Both the position numbers and the translations under genes were made by a program. This document shows positions 654 through 33,688 of a DNA stretch of 64,000 bases, piece after piece. Position 1 is the first letter of the stretch, and every line of letters starts with the position of its first letter. Under the pieces are notes generated by a model. The model searched no databases and was not told the DNA's origin. It saw only the letters and a list, made by a program, of their open reading frames with translations. This DNA comes from Candidatus Yanofskybacteria bacterium (lineage in GTDB: Bacteria > Patescibacteriota > Minisyncoccia > 2-02-FULL-40-12 > GWA2-44-9), in contig JADLBM010000016.1 of NCBI GenBank assembly GCA_020847715.1, forward strand, positions 6,919 to 70,918, read 5' to 3'.

Positions 654-1532
654 TTGGCCCCCGTGGCGGACATCCTGACATTATCTATAGAAGACAGCCG
701 GTATCCCACGCTCCTGAAGCGTATTGCCGACCCGCCACCCCACCTGCACTGCCGCGGCAACATGGCGCTCCTTGATTCGTTCTGCATCGGAGTCGTCGGC
801 GCTCGCCTCGCGAGCGATTACGGCCGCCGCGCCGCGACCGACCTCGCCGGACAGCTTGCGTCCAACGGCATCACCGTCGTGAGCGGGCTTGCGCTGGGCA
901 TTGATGCCGCTGCCCATCAGGCGGCACTCGACGCACACGGAGCAACGATTGCCGTTCTCGGCACCGGCATCGAGAACCTCTGGCCGAAGGAGAACGAACG
1001 GCTCGGGGAACGCATCATCGCGGAAGGCGGTCTCGTAGTGTCCGAGTACCCGGGAACAAAGCCCGGCGGGAAGCACACATTCCCCGAGCGAAACCGTATC
1101 ATCTCCGGTCTCTCGCGCGGCATCGTTGTCGTCGAAGCCGACCGAAAATCCGGCTCACTCATCACTGCGCGATGCGCACTCGAACAGGACCGTGATGTGT
1201 TCGCCGTTCCCGGCAGTATCTACTGGCCGCGTTCAATCGGTACGAACCTCCTCATTCAGCAAGGTGCTCGCCCAGTCCTCACCGCATCCGACATTCTTGC
1301 GTCATATGCCGTGCGGCAGATTCCGCTCCCCGTTGAGCCTCTATCCACACGTGATCCGGTTCAGCAGAGTATACTGGCTCTATTGCGTACACAGGGGCCG
1401 ACGCATCTCGATGCGATTGTCGCAACGATAGGAGAAGATGCGTCCCGCAGCATCGCGGCAGTCGCGCTCCTCGAACTGCAAGACGCCATCCGTCACTCAG
1501 GAGGCGGCATCTACCAGATCTCAGCGAACTAA
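654..1532 (+). CDS. dprA: DNA processing protein DprA (Smf), Rossmann-like DNA-binding domain
   Basis: 292-aa ORF with DprA motifs (GxALGID, AHxAAL, VVEA...GSLITA). The exact start is uncertain. Confidence 0.85.
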   Translation: MAPVADILTLSIEDSRYPTLLKRIADPPPHLHCRGNMALLDSFCIGVVGARLASDYGRRAATDLAGQLASNGITVVSGLALGIDAAAHQAALDAHGATIAVLGTGIENLWPKENERLGERIIAEGGLVVSEYPGTKPGGKHTFPERNRIISGLSRGIVVVEADRKSGSLITARCALEQDRDVFAVPGSIYWPRSIGTNLLIQQGARPVLTASDILASYAVRQIPLPVEPLSTRDPVQQSILALLRTQGPTHLDAIVATIGEDASRSIAAVALLELQDAIRHSGGGIYQISAN

Positions 1533-7386: not shown

Positions 7387-8148
7387 CTAGTTTAGCCGAA
7401 TTATCTCCTGTGCCAAGCGGTCGTACGCAAGCGCCGCCTTGCTTCCAGGATCGTGCTGCAAGATGGTCTTCCCAAAGCTCGGCGACTCGGCAACCGACAC
7501 ACCGCGTGGCACAACCGACTCGAACACGCGGCCCGGGAAATTGTGCATCACCTCATTGACCACCTGCCGCGAAAGCTGGTTGCGCTTGTCGTACATCGTG
7601 AGCACCACTCCCATCACCCCAAGGTCGGGGTTGAGCCCACCGCGCACGAGATCGATGGTGCGCATGAGCTGACCAAGCCCTTCGAGCGCGTAGTACTCGC
7701 ACTGCACCGGAATGATAACGCGGTCCGCCGCAGCGAGCGCGTTGATAGTAAGAAGTCCCAGCGACGGCGGACAGTCGATGAGGATATAGTCGTAGTTCGT
7801 CCGTAACTGGTTGAGGGCGCGGCGAAGACGATACTCGCGCTCCTGCATACTGACCAACTCAACAGTCGCTCCCGCCAGCGACTGTGCGGCCGGAAGAATG
7901 TCGTAGCCGTAGATAGGAGTCTTCCGGACGATTGAGATAGGGTTCGTGTCGCTCACCAGTGAGTGGTACACATTTTGGGCGGTTGGGTGTGTTTCGAGCC
8001 CAAGTCCCAGTGTGGCGTTCGCTTGAGAATCAAGGTCGACGAGAAGCACATACTTGCCGCGTGCGGCAAGATACGCGCCAAGGTTGACCGACGTCGTGGT
8101 CTTTCCTACTCCCCCTTTCTGATTACAGACTGCGATGACCCGTGCCAT
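7387..8148 (-). CDS. parA: Chromosome partitioning ATPase ParA/Soj
   Basis: MARVIAVCNQKGGVGKTTT is the deviant Walker A. The start is set at the internal ATG 8148; the longer ORF would run through the tRNA-Leu gene. Confidence 0.95.
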   Translation of the reverse strand: MARVIAVCNQKGGVGKTTTSVNLGAYLAARGKYVLLVDLDSQANATLGLGLETHPTAQNVYHSLVSDTNPISIVRKTPIYGYDILPAAQSLAGATVELVSMQEREYRLRRALNQLRTNYDYILIDCPPSLGLLTINALAAADRVIIPVQCEYYALEGLGQLMRTIDLVRGGLNPDLGVMGVVLTMYDKRNQLSRQVVNEVMHNFPGRVFESVVPRGVSVAESPSFGKTILQHDPGSKAALAYDRLAQEIIRLN

Positions 8149-8267
8149 AGATATTTCTCTTCTCCATTCTATTGTTTCGTCCTCTACAATGCAATTCAGC
8201 CAACTCTCGCATACGACGGAAGACCCTTGAGAAAACACTGAAAATACGGTATGATACGTGTCGCAAT

Positions 8268-8349
8268 GCCCGAGTGGTGGAATTGGCATACACGCACGAC
8301 TCAAAATCGTGTGCCGCAAGGCTTGTGGGTTCAACTCCCACCTCGGGCA
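8268..8349 (+). tRNA. tRNA-Leu (anticodon CAA), class II with a long variable arm
   Basis: Acceptor stem GCCCGAG/CTCGGGC, anticodon loop CTCAAAA, T-arm GTGGGTTCAACTCCCAC, discriminator A. CCA is not encoded. Confidence 0.8.
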
Positions 8350-8354
8350 CAGAA

Positions 8355-8388
8355 ACACATGCGACACCCCTACGGGTGTCGCATGTGT
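8355..8388 (+). terminator. Perfect 15-bp stem-loop right after tRNA-Leu (terminator or processing hairpin)
   Basis: ACACATGCGACACCC-CTAC-GGGTGTCGCATGTGT followed by TCGCTTATTT. Confidence 0.6.
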
Positions 8389-8509
8389 TCGCTTATTTAA
8401 CTCCACTCGAAACTATTTCCAAGGGAAGCGAGGGGTGGCACAGCGGGAATCGGTGGTTACACCTTATCGCCTTCTTCTGGGTGCTCGCGGGTCGGCGGCT
8501 CCGCAAAAT

Positions 8510-9322
8510 TTACTGAGCCTTTTCCAATTCCTCTAAATCCTTAAGAACATATGCCCTAAAAATGCTATCGCGTTCAATCCCATACGGAGTACTCATAATC
8601 CATTTACCCAATCGAGTGCCATTATGATCCCCGGGTCTTCCGTCGGGGAATACAGACCGCACTTTTTCTGGAGCATTACCAACCCATTTTTCAATAGCCT
8701 CGCGATACTCCTGCTGCGCTCTATCCAGCCTCTCATTCCATTCTTTTTGTGCTAGCTCATTTTTCTTGCGCACCTCTCGACAATCAGCTTTGTACTTTTC
8801 GACAGCTTGGCTATAACAACATTCGGGTGGAGGGGTGACACCTCTTGCTCGTGTCGGATTTTCCCCAGGCAAAGGAGTATCCCACCCGACAGGAGCAGGG
8901 TGCTCCACGCTGGCATGGATATATCCAGAATCTTCGCCGTCCTCATCCCGCACAGTTTTACTTTCGTTGGCTATCGTTTTTGCTCCACACGACTGACATA
9001 CCCACCACTTGTGGACTGCGCCCTCTTTCCATTCCTCAGTTGGCGCCTCGCCTTGCTCTTGCTTGTATTCTGGAACGGCGGGGAATGAAGGGAATTGCAG
9101 TTTTTCGCGTTCATCCGGAGCTCTCCACTCTGGTAGAGGGTTTGCTTCGAGATATGCTTTTATCTCTCTAATAGTTGCCGAATTTTCAAGTGCGCTTAAA
9201 ATTCGCTCTGTCTCTGCGTTATATTCAGCTTGCGCTCTTTCTTGCTCTGCCTTCCTTTTCCTAGCTCCTTCCTCATTTTGTTTGAGCTCTTCCGGCGAAA
9301 GCTCCCGTAAACGCCTTCTCAT
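8510..9322 (-). CDS. Hypothetical protein (270 aa); coiled-coil N-terminus, Cys-containing middle; within the low-GC island
   Basis: Long ORF. Local GC ~48% versus ~60% for the window. CATAAT sits 5 nt upstream of the ATG. Confidence 0.55.
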   Translation of the reverse strand: MRRRLRELSPEELKQNEEGARKRKAEQERAQAEYNAETERILSALENSATIREIKAYLEANPLPEWRAPDEREKLQFPSFPAVPEYKQEQGEAPTEEWKEGAVHKWWVCQSCGAKTIANESKTVRDEDGEDSGYIHASVEHPAPVGWDTPLPGENPTRARGVTPPPECCYSQAVEKYKADCREVRKKNELAQKEWNERLDRAQQEYREAIEKWVGNAPEKVRSVFPDGRPGDHNGTRLGKWIMSTPYGIERDSIFRAYVLKDLEELEKAQ

Positions 9323-9350
9323 GCTAGATTATGTAGATTAATTAGTAGCA

Positions 9351-10298
9351 CTACTTATCTCGAGCGATGGTCTCCGCAACAATCGCCGCAACCTCGTCGG
9401 GGCTCAGGCGCGAACTCGAACCGTCTTGATTCCGCGGAGATCCGCCGATGGAAGATCCACCGCCCCACCCGGGCTCCCTGTCATTCAGTGCGTGGAGAAT
9501 CGTTCCTTCTTTGCTTGCCGGTCCGACAGGAAAGTCTCCAACTATTTCGCTTTTCTTTCCCACCGTATATCTAAATGATCCGTCGGATAGTTCTTGGTAG
9601 GCGATTGCCCGAGTGTGGCCTGCGGCATAGAGTAAATCAAATACAAAATCATCGCTTTTTGCCATGATCCAACCCGTGCCCGTGTAAGTGATTTCAAATG
9701 TTCGCTCTTTTTCTTCTCGCGTAGCTAGGCCTTCGCCACGTCTCATTTTTTCAATAAGTTCGAGGGTGCCAGCGCTGCACTCTTCAAGAAGCTGCGTAAG
9801 GTCAGTTTCGCTGTATTTTTTCGAGCGGTGCAGATCGGAAACTCTTTTTAGTGGTCCTAAATAGAAAGCATCGGCTAGTTTCGGGTTCCTTGTTGGGTAT
9901 GCTGGTCCGTGTGCATCTACTTTGCCAACCACCTCGACAAGCTCCTGCACGACAGGGTCTCTGGCGAGTTCAGGATGCTTAAGTAAGACATAGGCCATAA
10001 CCGTATCTCCATCAATGTCGTTTATATAAACATTGCAACCGTCGGTTTCGAGTCCAAGTAAAAGCGCGTCTTTCACCTGCTCGCAGGTTGCGCTTGTGAC
10101 AAGACGAACACACTTGTCGTGGTGATCAAATGAAAATCGTTGGTTTCCTGCGTCGACTTCTGGACCCTCCACGGCTCCGTCAAGCGCAATACTCTTCGAT
10201 GGCAACTCTTCAAATTTCCAGACTTTGCCCCGTTCTATGTGCAATATTAAGCGCGGTCCTTTTTCGGCTTGATTATTAAATTGTTCTGATGTGTTCAT
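9351..10298 (-). CDS. Hypothetical protein (315 aa from ATG 10298; alternative start 10448) carrying FDHHD, NDIDGD and GWGGGS motifs
   Basis: Long ORF in the low-GC island. TAAAGT sits 7 nt upstream of ATG 10298. The motifs resemble DHH-phosphoesterase or nucleotidyltransferase signatures, but the assignment is unproven. Confidence 0.5.
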   Translation of the reverse strand: MNTSEQFNNQAEKGPRLILHIERGKVWKFEELPSKSIALDGAVEGPEVDAGNQRFSFDHHDKCVRLVTSATCEQVKDALLLGLETDGCNVYINDIDGDTVMAYVLLKHPELARDPVVQELVEVVGKVDAHGPAYPTRNPKLADAFYLGPLKRVSDLHRSKKYSETDLTQLLEECSAGTLELIEKMRRGEGLATREEKERTFEITYTGTGWIMAKSDDFVFDLLYAAGHTRAIAYQELSDGSFRYTVGKKSEIVGDFPVGPASKEGTILHALNDREPGWGGGSSIGGSPRNQDGSSSRLSPDEVAAIVAETIARDK

Positions 10299-10483
10299 GG
10301 AGCATACTTTACCCTCTCCTGCAAAAACCACAAGGCGGCTAAGCGGCCAATTATCCCGCCAGCAGCTTGTTCTCCACGCCGAACATGAGAGTTGACAAAT
10401 CCATAATTTGGTGTAAGTTGAATCCATCGCATCTCTGCAAGAGCCCACCGAGATTGAGCGGATAGCCCCTCATCGGCGAGCTC

Positions 10484-10672
10484 TTGGGGGACACGATGTA
10501 CTCTGACAGCGAGATCGCAGCAGTGCTCCGCGAAGAGACGCCCATCGTCACCAGCGTCGCGGAGCTCGCAGAACAGCCCGACATCCATTTCGAGGAGGTC
10601 AACGACTGCGCCCCAGGGTGCGTGCTCCATCCGGAGCGCAGCACCGCCGATCACGCCGTGCACGCTGAGTAG
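10484..10672 (+). CDS. Small acidic hypothetical protein (about 58-62 aa; TTG start at 10484 or ATG at 10496)
   Basis: ORF followed by two tandem intrinsic terminator hairpins. Confidence 0.3.
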   Translation: MGDTMYSDSEIAAVLREETPIVTSVAELAEQPDIHFEEVNDCAPGCVLHPERSTADHAVHAE

Positions 10673-10677
10673 TACCG

Positions 10678-10729
10678 CCTGTCGTCACAACGACAGGAAG
10701 GCGCCGATACCCATCGGCGCCTCTTTTAT
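10678..10729 (+). terminator. Tandem hairpins; the second is a canonical intrinsic terminator
   Basis: CCTGTCGT-CACA-ACGACAGG, then GGCGCCGAT-ACCC-ATCGGCGCC followed by TCTTTTAT. Confidence 0.65.
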
Positions 10730-10797
10730 ACACACCCTCAGGCATTGCACGCGCATGCGAAGTGCTATCATGCGCGTATCACACACCGCACGGAGGG

Positions 10798-11031
10798 ATG
10801 AAGCAACTCGAGAAACAAAAATCGCATTCGCATCCGGCACCGCTGCCGGAGTCATACCTCCTCTGCCACGAATGCGATGGCACGTGGGTTGATGGTCGCG
10901 CCGGAACATGTGCGCACTGCCCGCTCGATACCGCAAGTCAGGACTTTCATCTCTGTCTCCCGTGCGCGCTGAATGAAAAGCGCTGCCAGCATTGCGGGCA
11001 GGAGATGCCCGTGCGCATTTCGGTCTGCTAA
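10798..11031 (+). CDS. Small Cys-rich protein with four CxxC motifs (double zinc ribbon), 77 aa
   Basis: CHEC, CAHC, CLPC and CQHC motifs. GGAGGG directly upstream. The 9-bp inverted repeat ACGCGCATG...CATGCGCGT lies in its promoter region. Confidence 0.45.
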   Translation: MKQLEKQKSHSHPAPLPESYLLCHECDGTWVDGRAGTCAHCPLDTASQDFHLCLPCALNEKRCQHCGQEMPVRISVC

Positions 11032-11870
11032 CCTGCGCTCGCAGGACGCGTTGCAAGCGTCAGCACATTCTCGAGCACCGCCGCAACAACGAGCGGCCCC
11101 ATACCACCCGGGACAGGCGTGAGCGCCCCAGCGATCTTCGCAACCGAAGCAGCGTCAACATCACCCACATACGCGTTGCCCCGCTTTGCATACCCGAAAT
11201 CAAGCACGAGCGCCCCCTCCTTCACCCACGCGTCGGTAACAAGCCCCGGCACCCCCGCACCGGAAATAATAATGTCCGCTCCCCGTGCGAGAAGTTCCGG
11301 CTGCGGGGTGTCGACATCGATATCAATCACCTCCGCTCCCTGCTGACGGAACCACCGCGCGACCGGAATGCCGATCAATGCGCCCTGCCCCACCACGGCA
11401 ACGCGCGCACCCCGCACATCACGTCCGAGCGCCTGAAGAAGAGTCCGAACCGCCAACGCCGCGGGAGGAAGGATTGGCGAAACGCCATCGGCACATCTCT
11501 GCTCGCTTCGAGACGAAAGGAGATCAACATCTTTCTCTGAAGGAATGAGCGCACAAAATCCGGCGCGATCCCACCCCGTAGGCAGTGGAAGCTCAACGAA
11601 GATGCCGTGCACCTGCTCATCGGCGGCGAGATAGGCCAGCGTCTGCCGCGCACCGGCTTCGTCATCTGCGTCGAACACATATGTCGAGAACTGGATGCCG
11701 GCGGTATGTGCAGCTTTTTGCTTTAGCCGGACGAACGCACGAAGTCCAGGATCATCTCCAGCGACGATAGCCGCGAGATGGAGCGGTGCGCCTAATGCTT
11801 CGACCTGCTCTCGCAGGTCGCTCAGCAGTGCCTCTGCAATGGTCTTCCCCTGGATGATGGTCGCGCTCAT
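11028..11870 (-). CDS. folD: Methylenetetrahydrofolate dehydrogenase / methenyl-THF cyclohydrolase
   Basis: 280 aa with FolD motifs (YAKRGNAYVGDVD; PVPGGMGP). Confidence 0.9.
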   Translation of the reverse strand: MSATIIQGKTIAEALLSDLREQVEALGAPLHLAAIVAGDDPGLRAFVRLKQKAAHTAGIQFSTYVFDADDEAGARQTLAYLAADEQVHGIFVELPLPTGWDRAGFCALIPSEKDVDLLSSRSEQRCADGVSPILPPAALAVRTLLQALGRDVRGARVAVVGQGALIGIPVARWFRQQGAEVIDIDVDTPQPELLARGADIIISGAGVPGLVTDAWVKEGALVLDFGYAKRGNAYVGDVDAASVAKIAGALTPVPGGMGPLVVAAVLENVLTLATRPASAG

Positions 11871-11884
11871 GGCGAAAGTATTGG

Positions 11885-12517
11885 TTAGAGATATGCGAGA
11901 ATTTTATCGGCACGGACGGCTCCCTGCCGCAGAATACGCGGGACCCGACCGGACAAGTCTACCACGGTCGATGGGAGAGAATCAGGCAACACCCCCGCAT
12001 CAAGGATCATGTCCGGTTGCGGCGCTGCCCGCTCGAAGGCCGCGCGAATCGCGGGCGCATCATTCGTGGGCTCGGTTCCCGCTGCATTCGCGGATGTACC
12101 AGCGAGTGGGTAGCCGAGGTGACGCAAGAGCATCTGCACGAATGCGTGCTCCGGCGCTCGGATACCGACGGTCTGTCCTCCCCCGCTCATAATAGCCGGA
12201 ACGATAGGCCGGCGCGGAAGAACGAAGGTAACCTTCCCAGGCCAGAACCGCGCGATGAGCGACTCCTGCTCCGGCGTAATATATGCGAGCTCCCGAGCCC
12301 ACGAAATGTCCCGCACAAGCATCGGGAGCGCCTTCACATAGCTTCGATGCTTGATATCGAACACTCGCCCCACCGCCGCGGCATCAAGCGCGTTACATCC
12401 CAGCCCATAGAGCGTGTCGGTCGGATACACTGCCGTCCCGCCACGACGCAACACCGAGACTGCGCGCTCGACGGCGGGCATCATATCTCCGGCAAGATCG
12501 AGTGAGAGTGTTTGCAT
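11885..12517 (-). CDS. tsaC: L-threonylcarbamoyladenylate synthase (YrdC/Sua5 family)
   Basis: YPTDTLYGLGCNA and related YrdC motifs. 210 aa. Confidence 0.85.
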   Translation of the reverse strand: MQTLSLDLAGDMMPAVERAVSVLRRGGTAVYPTDTLYGLGCNALDAAAVGRVFDIKHRSYVKALPMLVRDISWARELAYITPEQESLIARFWPGKVTFVLPRRPIVPAIMSGGGQTVGIRAPEHAFVQMLLRHLGYPLAGTSANAAGTEPTNDAPAIRAAFERAAPQPDMILDAGVLPDSLPSTVVDLSGRVPRILRQGAVRADKILAYL

Positions 12518-12568
12518 GCAGCCCGATGAAGCGCAAGGAGCCCTTGCGGGCTCCTTGGGTCGTTCTCG

Positions 12569-12856
12569 CTATTTCGACTCTTCCTTTTTCTTCTTCGGCT
12601 TCCAGCTTTCCATTTTCGGACGGTCCCACACCTTGTGGTTGACCATCAGGTTGTTGACGGTCGGACTCACCTGCGCCCCCTTAGACATCCAGTATTCGAT
12701 CCGCTCGCGATCGGCCTTGAACGCCTTGGCATGCGGGTCGTAGGTGCCCAAGAGCTCCAGGTACTGGCCCTGGGGTTTCTTGGTGTGCTCCATGACCGCG
12801 ATGCGGAAATGGGCCTGCTTTTTCTTACCGATACGCTGCAGACGAATCTTCAACAT
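12569..12856 (-). CDS. rpsP: 30S ribosomal protein S16
   Basis: MLKIRLQRIGKKKQAHFRIAV... TTGCAA-N17-TAGGAT sits 8 nt upstream of the ATG. Confidence 0.9.
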   Translation of the reverse strand: MLKIRLQRIGKKKQAHFRIAVMEHTKKPQGQYLELLGTYDPHAKAFKADRERIEYWMSKGAQVSPTVNNLMVNHKVWDRPKMESWKPKKKKEESK

Positions 12857-12897
12857 AGTGCATTATCCTACCAGATATGCGCATTTCTTGCAAGTAT

Positions 12898-12925
12898 TTG
12901 ACATTCCTGCATTTAAAAGTATAAT
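12898..12925 (+). promoter_or_regulatory. Near-consensus sigma70-type promoter (TTGACA-N16-TATAAT) driving the small ORF at 12945
   Basis: TTGACA at 12898-12903, TATAAT at 12920-12925. SD GGAGGTG at 12932-12938 lies 6 nt before the ATG. Confidence 0.6.
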
Positions 12926-12944
12926 AAATACGGAGGTGCGAGCA

Positions 12945-13268
12945 ATGTTCGTGTTCAAGCCGGTCGTCCCAGACCTCTCAACGCTCGCCAAGACCATCGG
13001 TGGGCGCATCGAGGTCACCAAGACGCGCACGGGATCGGGCAAGGATCGCTGGATTGCCCGGGTTGTTGGACCAGACGACTGTCATGTCGGCTTCCGATTC
13101 GACGGGAGAAACGCGCAGCTCGGCGTGTTCTCTCCATCGGTAACTGCTCCCACGGCACCGCTCGCGCGGCTCCGCCTTGCGCGACTCCTGTCGCGTCGCA
13201 CATTCGTGATCCGAGAACCTCAGGCCGGGAGAGAGCACTACCTTCCACTGGGGTGCATCCGCCCCTAG
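12945..13268 (+). CDS. Hypothetical protein (107 aa) with strong promoter, SD and terminator
   Basis: MFVFKPVVPDLSTLAKTIGGRIEV... The expression signals are unusually canonical for this window. Confidence 0.55.
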   Translation: MFVFKPVVPDLSTLAKTIGGRIEVTKTRTGSGKDRWIARVVGPDDCHVGFRFDGRNAQLGVFSPSVTAPTAPLARLRLARLLSRRTFVIREPQAGREHYLPLGCIRP

Positions 13269-33580: not shown

Positions 33581-33627
33581 AAAGAACGGCCCACATGGGC
33601 CGCTCTTTTTATTGCGCGGTGGACCGG
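33581..33627. repeat. 47-bp direct repeat copy overlapping the 3' end of tRNA-Asp and its terminator
   Basis: Identical to 33413-33459. Confidence 0.85.
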
Positions 33628-33688
33628 ATTCGAACCGGCGACCTCTTCCGTGACAGGGAAGCGCTCTAACCAGCTGAGCTACCACCGC
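33615..33688 (-). tRNA. tRNA-Asp (anticodon GTC)
   Basis: Reverse complement reads GCGGTGGTAGCTCAGCTGGTTAGAGCGCTTCCCTGTCACGGAAGAGGTCGCCGGTTCGAATCCGGTCCACCGC. Discriminator G. CCA is not encoded. Confidence 0.85.

Follow-up and report, generated by a model that had tools for sequence, protein, structure and literature searches.

A putative DHH-like phosphoesterase in a tRNA-Leu-adjacent islet of a Patescibacteria genome belongs to a family also found in type III CRISPR-Cas loci and huge phages

Signal-removing enzymes set the duration and toxicity of type III CRISPR immunity, and those borne by viruses are anti-CRISPRs. The ring-nuclease families of recent surveys comprise Crn1-3 and Csx15/16/20 (PMC12409355), and Crn4, whose fold is novel, is small (roughly 130 residues) and dimeric (PMC12830947). 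NrN, a type III-B CRISPR-associated phosphodiesterase of the DHH family, degrades S-adenosyl methionine-AMP (SAM-AMP) beside CorA (PDB 9lq9; PMC10600005), and MAD, a DHH-DHHA1 nuclease associated with the membrane, is described in a paper citing the original work as degrading cyclic tetra-adenylate (cA4) (Zhao et al. 2020, cited in PMC8284326). The recognised set of such enzymes (Crn1-4, Csx15/16/20, NrN, DEDD nucleases, SAM-AMP lyases and MAD) omits the protein family considered here. One of its members, ORF A (open reading frame A; 9351..10298, minus strand, 315 aa), is encoded in a 64,000-nt stretch of DNA, hereafter the window, from a metagenome-assembled genome (MAG) labelled Candidatus Yanofskybacteria (assembly GCA_020847715.1, contig JADLBM010000016.1, positions 6,919 to 70,918 of the forward strand). 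It lies with a second gene, ORF B (8510..9322, minus strand, 270 aa), in an islet at the 3' end of a tRNA-Leu(CAA) gene. Terms for a family of this kind are absent from a systematic survey of accessory genes (PMC6546367) and, beyond NrN and DEDD, from a 2024 effector survey; within the literature searched, the family appears to be undescribed. The interest of the locus rests on this family, whose link to type III CRISPR-Cas and huge phages was unexpected.

ORF A had no match in Pfam, NCBIfam, PADLOC or PHROGs, and a profile search of the Protein Data Bank (PDB) sequences with its family also returned none. Its homologs, hereafter family A, form 701 clusters at E values up to 1e-3; the best non-self matches are 60–64% identical and all are annotated as hypothetical, and the hosts are Parcubacteria-type MAGs together with MAGs of Chlorobiales, Chloroherpetonaceae and Dehalococcoidia. 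AlphaFold2, run with 31 sequences, produced a confident model (predicted local distance difference test, pLDDT, 92.7; predicted TM-score, pTM, 0.86) with the two-domain DHH plus DHHA1 architecture and its linker helix. A Foldseek search with this model retrieved DhhP, TM1595 and PAP phosphatase (E about 4e-4, probability 0.95–0.98), and the identity to DHH/DHHA1 proteins in the structural alignments was 10–15%; Cdc45 and C-Ala domains were also among the matches. Across 63 non-redundant members of the family, down to 34% identity, the residues D40, D58-H59-H60, R65, Q74, N93-D94-x-D96-x-D98, D128, G279-G280, G285-G286 and R289 are kept in 62–63 of the 63 sequences, the D58-H59-H60 motif in all of them, and in the C-terminal domain G279-G280 is followed by an invariant G285-G286-x-P-R289. 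An earlier note on this DNA had picked out FDHHD, NDIDGD and GWGGGS in this protein, and all three are present, the first within FSFDHHD. We infer that the conserved residues form a metal-dependent active site and a phosphate-binding loop, and ORF A is likely to be a DHH-like metal-dependent phosphoesterase, a prediction that draws on the model. The copy in the window is probably functional, as predicted from its keeping every conserved residue. It has no signal peptide and its model has no membrane segment. ORF A is thus described as DHH/DHHA1-like by fold and residue chemistry and is not filed as a member of the Pfam family. For annotation, its predicted structure implies the existence, outside Pfam, of a DHH/DHHA1-like fold in which the order of motifs is rearranged.

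One comparison is with the stand-alone DHH/DHHA1 enzymes and nanoRNases, namely NrnA, Pde2/DhhP, TM1595, the GdpP catalytic domain, PggH and archaeal PAP phosphatase. Family A differs from NrnA/GdpP-type enzymes in its low identity (10–15%), in a profile probability of 0.15% and in a motif order other than I-II-III-IV; moreover, it is patchy, horizontally transferred and CRISPR-linked rather than core. NrN is a recognisable DHH-family member with CorA as its partner, whereas family A carries no Pfam DHH/DHHA1 signal, has another motif order and GGG-S in place of GGGH, and, where cas genes are present, is found with CARF effectors (Csx1, Card1, NE0113-like); no CorA was noticed in its loci, and its substrate is a proposal. 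MAD, as it is portrayed in that secondary account, offers a precedent for a DHH-DHHA1 enzyme that removes a type III second messenger, but it is membrane-associated and canonical, in contrast to the ORF A model. To our knowledge, MAD is not encoded in cas operons. The ring nucleases Crn1-4 and Csx15/16/20 and the viral AcrIII-1/Crn2 share with family A the proposed role of signal removal and a distribution over type III loci, solo genes and viruses (PMC12409355, PMC12830947), but they have unrelated folds (CARF-like, DUF1874 or the novel fold of Crn4), are much smaller and, except for Crn3, are metal-independent, whereas family A is predicted to be metal-dependent. Crn4 was considered as a possible member of the same family and was rejected on its size, its dimeric state and its novel fold. 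A circular permutation of the N-terminal domain was also tried: all 12 cut-point combinations scored below 1% in hhalign, and since the alignment of canonical proteins was thin, the idea is unsupported rather than disproved.

Family A genes recur in type III CRISPR-Cas loci. When 144 neighbours, drawn from 34 non-redundant family-A loci (fetched loci carry L numbers), were scanned in bulk with PADLOC, type III CRISPR-Cas models dominated, and the models matched by neighbours were those of Cas10, Cmr4, Csm3, Cas6, Csx1, Csx3 and CARF families. One arrangement is that of L120, a III-D locus in which a 7-repeat array, Cas1, Cas6, a reverse transcriptase (RT), three uncharacterised genes, family A, Csx1, Cas10, a Cas7-Cas5 III-D fusion and Cas7 are found. 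L126 has a 12-repeat array, and its Cas6 gene abuts the stop codon of family A; in L124, Cas10b and Cas6 are adjacent and an RT-Cas1 gene is nearby; in L116, family A is followed by an overlapping gene for an NE0113-like protein and then by Cmr1; Cas6, family A, Cas1 and RT are found in L138; and L008 holds an array, RT-Cas1, NE0113 and Card1. Csx3 or Csx3-AAA-like genes lie near family A in three or four further lineages. By the same detectors, an array or a cas gene was found in none of 80 control loci anchored on ParA (1.25 Mb). Family A therefore recurs in or near cas10 loci above background, as judged on a small sample with an imperfect control. On a crude neighbor-joining tree, the cellular clade that holds the ORF A of the window has the CRISPR-linked members dispersed near its base, and the phage clade is separate. 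A defence-related role for the family is plausible. Several uncharacterised genes stand between family A and the cas genes (323, 376 and 492 aa at L120 4278–7890; 430 and 306 aa at L008 3742–5987), and it is possible that they encode further accessory proteins.

Neighbourhoods were compared over 97 family-A loci (9 from an identical-protein look-up, 8 viral contigs and 80 from metagenomes), all of whose neighbour ORFs were clustered. In the subfamily nearest to the ORF A of the window, no partner gene recurs. The GC content of the family-A gene often departs from that of its host, in both directions (0.49 versus 0.36, 0.66 versus 0.42, 0.58 versus 0.26), and because this discordance is seen in many loci it indicates that the family is frequently transferred. 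A distant clade, 33–41% identical, is found on phage contigs of 131–409 kb and on similar metagenome contigs (L092-L097, L137, L146, L150, L151, L157, L164, L167, L169, L175, L177 and L178). A PPP-type calcineurin-like phosphoesterase (PF00149, roughly 250 aa) accompanies this clade in 16 loci and lies directly upstream in many of them; the other neighbours include HU-like, ClpP, FtsK-like and DUF192 genes. Family A and the metallophosphatase may constitute a two-enzyme module in these phages that degrades nucleotides or counters defence. Elsewhere, the plasmid collection contained no match to family A and the sequenced-phage collection a single weak one, in an unannotated 485-kb uncultured phage. 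In L005 and L006, family A starts 16 bp after uvrC within a uvrB-uvrA-uvrC cluster. In four Parcubacteria loci (L005 6948–8246 and also L104 and L134), family A is followed 8 bp on by the start of a gene for a protein of 252–432 aa, another possible accessory protein.

Some members need care in reading. A 598-aa apparent fusion in L140 was rejected, since its frame merely runs on from a decayed C-terminal fragment into an aminotransferase gene. Further long members owe their length to over-calling of the N terminus in high-GC DNA. L140 contains two copies, of which the intact one (7974–8909) has a GC content of 0.67 in a background of 0.47, and the decayed one (11306–13102) has GWKGS, PM for PR, and runs into the class-V aminotransferase-like gene. 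High-GC loci (for example L120 8052–9086, minus strand) carry long spurious antisense ORFs (cluster c2, 13 loci) that overlap family A and can hide the real gene from naive ORF calling. ORF A itself is lengthened by automatic callers to 358–365 aa from an upstream GTG, but homologs begin near residue 17–21 of the 315-aa form, and their alignment favours the ATG at 10298 over that start.

The DNA that carries ORF A differs from its surroundings and is missing from related genomes. In 2-kb sliding windows, positions 8501–10500 have the lowest GC content of the 64 kb (0.491, the mean of the window being 0.585; z = −5.0), a deficit that exceeds chance by far, and the tetranucleotide distance from the window average peaks at the same place (z = +6.2). 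The GC content at third codon positions (GC3) averages 0.672 over 49 long ORFs but is 0.413 in ORF B and 0.464 in ORF A, and first and second positions (GC1 and GC2) are ordinary; normal GC1 and GC2 with a deviant GC3 is what is expected for real genes of foreign codon usage. Related genomes were fetched with the adjacent ParA as anchor, and the ten closest have ParA proteins 59–87% identical. tRNA-Leu(CAA) adjoins ParA-ParB in all ten, and the order S16-YrdC-(FolD)-tRNA-Leu-ParA-ParB-RelA is kept wherever the contigs reach, with S16 or FolD seen in several. Neither ORF A nor ORF B is encoded at any of the ten syntenic loci, so the two are not conserved core genes there. The distance from FolD/YrdC to the tRNA is 2.7 kb in the window, 10–50 bp in three relatives, about 0.8–1 kb in two and 4.2 kb in one. 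By blastn against the closest relative, L012, homology ends at the 3' end of the tRNA (8351) and resumes at 10791 (window 11255..10791 corresponds to L012 8801..9247), inside a conserved small Cys-rich ORF. The block that varies between the two thus runs from 8352 to about 10790, and it takes in a 62-codon ORF and the terminator-like hairpin behind it. At the same spot between FolD/YrdC and tRNA-Leu, L016 (5441–9637) carries four unrelated ORFs, whose products include an HExxH-motif protein of 553 aa and a hydrolase-like one of 298 aa, and L015 (2583–3530) carries a 315-aa membrane protein, these cargoes being named by eye. The unrelated cargoes in L016 and L015 therefore identify the site as a variable hotspot.

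The region is very likely an acquired islet of about 2.4 kb, because its composition, its absence from the ten orthologous loci and a near-identical tract of 2.9 kb shared with another strain all point to horizontal acquisition. The earlier note had proposed as much. Its coordinates for the features at tRNA-Leu, the two co-directional ORFs and the 28-nt AT-rich gap were confirmed, the low GC that it reported against the surrounding genes was recovered by the sliding windows, and acquisition at the tRNA 3' end was upheld; the end of the island, which it had set at 10450, has to be moved to the boundary drawn by L012. Signs of mobility are scarce: ORF A, ORF B and the 62-codon ORF match no recombinase family, no integrase is present in the 64-kb window, and no direct repeat of the tRNA 3' end (attL/attR) flanks the cargo in the window, in line with the earlier note, which had found no distal att repeat. 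The locus resembles other tRNA-adjacent islets and variable hotspots without mobility genes in its odd composition, its position 3' of a tRNA, its absence from relatives and its differing cargo elsewhere. It departs from such islets in having neither an integrase nor att repeats around the cargo, the sole tRNA-fragment repeat being one in a sister strain that brackets a 172-bp cargo-proximal segment. As an instance of gene flux at a hotspot flanked by a tRNA, the islet is nothing out of the ordinary.

Two contigs from two other samples, L001 and L002, have the same arrangement in a diverged sister strain. RelA, ParB, ParA, FolD and YrdC differ by 2.5–5.2% at the DNA level between the window and this strain, whereas the tract 8072..10949 contains one substitution (at 10040). 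No other stretch of the 12 kb compared is poor in substitutions over such a length; this one reaches slightly into the conserved genes on both sides and is bordered on both by dense substitutions. Because the near-identical tract extends into conserved genes on either side, the islet appears to have passed recently between strains by homologous recombination in its flanks, so that the comparison documents this mode of transfer in an uncultivated lineage. It points to this route in place of the integrase that the earlier note took to have been lost. The only structural difference between the strains is a 172-bp insertion or deletion at 8353, where the sister strain has extra sequence (L001 10934–11163) consisting of a second, partial tRNA-Leu 3' end and a hairpin arm, which form a 39-nt direct repeat (92% identical). 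The extra segment also includes an inverted 14-nt fragment of the T-arm, and the strain has two copies of the hairpin. The 39-nt repeat brackets those 172 bp, which lie between the tRNA and the cargo, and leaves the cargo outside. It looks like the att-like scar of an older tRNA-targeted integration, and the single tRNA-end copy of the window looks like the recombined product of the two repeats.

ORF B stands apart from ORF A in its distribution. In line with the description of the second protein in the earlier note as a coiled-coil, Cys-containing protein with no recognisable family, a small beta-sheet lies between two long helices (10–47 and 169–216), the motifs WWVCxSCGxKTIA and PPxxCCY contain conserved cysteines, and no family match was obtained in Pfam, NCBIfam, PADLOC (noise at E = 0.026) or PHROGs. 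A word-indexed search returned only the protein itself, from a MAG labelled Candidatus Yanofskybacteria, and an exhaustive HMMER search over 1.84 billion representatives found three relatives of 35–48% identity that share both cysteine motifs and the C-terminal helix. On this sequence conservation, ORF B is a real but very rare gene. The only relative with readable context, P0123 (L182 2304–3179), comes from another groundwater genome of the candidate phyla radiation (CPR), where it lies in a patch of low GC content (0.475–0.48 against about 0.60) next to iPGM and an upstream 166-aa protein with a weak STIV_B116-like match. No family A gene is near P0123, the one relative of ORF B whose surroundings could be read. 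Its placement, likewise in a low-GC patch, suggests that ORF B is itself a mobile single-gene cargo.

Taken together, these results suggest the following reading. The islet, devoid of mobility genes, lies in the chromosome of a member of the Patescibacteria (Parcubacteria; MAG label Yanofskybacteria), with tRNA-Leu(CAA) at one end and the FolD/YrdC side at the other; it would most likely spread between strains through homologous recombination in the conserved flanks, and an older tRNA-targeted integration at the site would have left the scar in the sister strain. In ORF A, the cluster of Asp, His and Asn residues would bind a divalent metal, and the GWGG...GG-PR loop of the C-terminal domain would hold a nucleotide phosphate as in enzymes of the NrnA, GdpP and NrN types, so that the protein would act as a phosphodiesterase on nucleotides or short oligonucleotides. 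The most likely substrates would be the signalling nucleotides of type III systems or the linear products of their breakdown, because the family occurs in III-B and III-D loci beside effectors that sense cyclic oligoadenylates (cOA), namely Csx1, Card1 and other CARF proteins, and because a sister clade is found in huge phages. Family A might then be an off-switch in hosts and possibly an anti-CRISPR in phages, the copy in the window being solo. For the reading as a whole, an exchanged islet with independent cargo and a phosphodiesterase tied to type III signalling, the considerations for and against appear to us evenly balanced. The assignment of type III signalling nucleotides as the substrates, made by analogy, is tentative and somewhat doubtful. 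The widest version is more doubtful again: that family A is an unrecognised class of metal-dependent, DHH/DHHA1-like and profile-invisible enzymes degrading type III signals, serving as an off-switch in host III-B and III-D systems, as an anti-CRISPR that huge phages would use together with a PPP-type metallophosphatase and, in CPR bacteria, as a mobile solo gene that would perhaps quench cOA signalling in its own cell or in an attached host cell. Surveys built on panels of hidden Markov models would miss the family because no public profile matches it, and with at least 701 clusters, in type III operons, on 131–409-kb phage contigs and as mobile solo genes of CPR bacteria, it is a concrete and testable candidate.

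Several results weigh against a phosphodiesterase tied to type III signalling. As to the enzyme, ORF A gave no match to Pfam DHH (PF01368) or DHHA1 (PF02272) at E values up to 1, a Pfam search with 31 members at E values up to 10 likewise gave no DHH/DHHA1 link, and the profile probability of 0.15% was obtained with hhalign against canonical GdpP/NrnA-like proteins taken from the fetched loci. Superfamily members have a DHH motif in the N-terminal domain and GGGH in the DHHA1 domain (PMC4081065). Family A has acidic motifs (D40, N93-D94-x-D96-x-D98 and D128), but the canonical order I-II-III(DHH)-IV, in which I is DxD and II and IV are each D, is not seen, the DxDxD of family A following the DHH, and in place of GGGH the family has G-W-G-G-(G/S/A)-(S/T) without a histidine. 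As to the type III link, the association is modest by one-sided Fisher tests (p = 0.047 for arrays, 0.025 for cas genes; p = 0.0013 when counting the Csx3-AAA loci brings the positives to roughly 10 in about 90 non-redundant family loci), the sample is small, the control set sits near replication origins and some of the Cas queries came from the family's own loci. The closest homologs (57–64% identity), which include the two closest on long contigs, are solo among housekeeping genes. The copy studied here does not lie inside a type III locus; no CRISPR array lies in the 64-kb window, and the 49 ORFs there that reach 150 aa or more gave no match to cas or CARF models. The earlier note had suspected an accessory or defence function, and the part of this that stands is a plausible role for the family, given its type III loci; the form in which it was put does not, and no cas gene accompanies the copy within 64 kb.

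The main rival is that ORF A is a housekeeping or salvage enzyme, an NrnA-like nanoRNase or pAp phosphatase converting oligonucleotides to mononucleotides, whose CRISPR neighbourhoods are incidental. CPR bacteria generally lack de novo nucleotide synthesis, and such an activity would be useful to them and to large phages that scavenge nucleotides. The best Foldseek matches of ORF A are DhhP, TM1595 and PAP phosphatase, most family loci, including those of all the closest homologs, are solo among housekeeping genes, the gene has a host-like GC content in several Parcubacteria, and both the missing signal peptide and the size suit stand-alone NrnA-type enzymes. The gene is, however, patchy and absent from the ten close relatives, its GC content is often unlike that of the host, and its frame overlaps or abuts others in at least six type III loci of different subtypes against none of the 80 control loci, which leaves this rival unlikely in our judgment, though still ahead of all the others. 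An exonuclease like RecJ, acting on single-stranded DNA or RNA in repair or replication, would agree with the gene following uvrC in L005 and L006 and with the HU-like and FtsK-like genes near phage-clade members, but the UvrC adjacency is limited to one lineage, ORF A is half the size of RecJ with no oligonucleotide-binding (OB) fold or DNA-binding extension seen, and the clustering of neighbours brought up no recurrent repair gene; this reading is improbable. Still less is to be said for a resemblance to DHH/DHHA1 that arose by convergence or lacks catalysis, like that of the Cdc45 scaffold or of the C-Ala domain of AlaRS, with binding of nucleic acid or nucleotides and no hydrolysis. It would explain why sequence-level homology to DHH/DHHA1 was not found, why Cdc45 and C-Ala are among the structural matches and why the canonical GGGH histidine is missing, but five Asp, two His, one Asn and two Arg that are invariant or nearly so in 63 sequences down to 34% identity are the pattern of an active site rather than of a scaffold, and we hold it to be very improbable. 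Equally remote is the proposal, put forward in the earlier note, that ORF A and ORF B form a two-gene operon acting as a defence or toxin-antitoxin module. The two genes are co-directional, separated by 28 nt, alike in their odd composition and together in both strains, yet a search of 1.84e9 representatives yielded three homologs of ORF B, family A is missing from the surroundings of P0123, clustering of neighbour ORFs found an ORF B-like gene in none of the 97 family-A loci and neither protein matches a defence model in PADLOC. A conserved A+B pair is thereby rejected and the module is largely refuted by its distribution: a component match and a conserved co-occurrence are both lacking, and the two genes are very probably independent cargo rather than a system. 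A phosphodiesterase tied to type III signalling thus stays ahead of these alternatives.

The tRNA-Leu(CAA) gene (8268–8350, plus strand; ARAGORN, Rfam tRNA at 56.2 bits), the conserved anchor of the locus, was the sole match in an Rfam scan of 7900–11200. Directly 3' of it, a perfect stem with a 4-nt loop (8354–8369 and 8374–8389, plus strand) is followed by a weak T-rich tail; the earlier note had seen this hairpin and given its stem as 15 bp, which should read 16 bp. From its sequence, the hairpin (8354–8389) is probably the terminator of tRNA-Leu and possibly a bidirectional stop that serves ORF B too, and L012 has a hairpin of different sequence at the equivalent position 3' of its tRNA. 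The spacer between ORF A and ORF B (9323–9350, minus strand) is 28 nt long with 8 of 28 positions G or C (29%), and since the gap is short and the strand the same, co-transcription of the two genes is suggested. A possible Shine-Dalgarno-like AGGAGAGGG (10312..10320, minus strand) lies 14–22 nt upstream of the ATG at 10298, a rather long spacing that makes it a weak candidate, and a promoter scan found nothing on the minus strand upstream of ORF A. The 62-codon ORF (10484..10672, plus strand), which belongs both to the block without homology in L012 and to the near-identical strain tract, has a normal GC content of 0.60 and no similarity to the 68-aa ORF at the equivalent position in L012; the hairpin after it occupies 10699–10722. 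The small Cys-rich ORF (10762..11031, plus strand, 89 aa), which is native and lies just downstream of folD, has several CxxC pairs and no family match (PHROGs E = 0.02 at best), and its homolog in L012 is an 85-aa ORF (9010–9267, minus strand).

Elsewhere in the window, the only other tRNA is tRNA-Asp(GTC) (33614–33688, minus strand), whose surroundings are mildly deviant in tetranucleotides (z about 1.8). A 292-aa ORF at 654–1529 (plus strand) matched the PADLOC ShosA/PsyrA models at E = 2e-64; because these models include what we take to be a DprA-like domain, this ORF is probably a housekeeping DprA and not part of a Shosta defence system.

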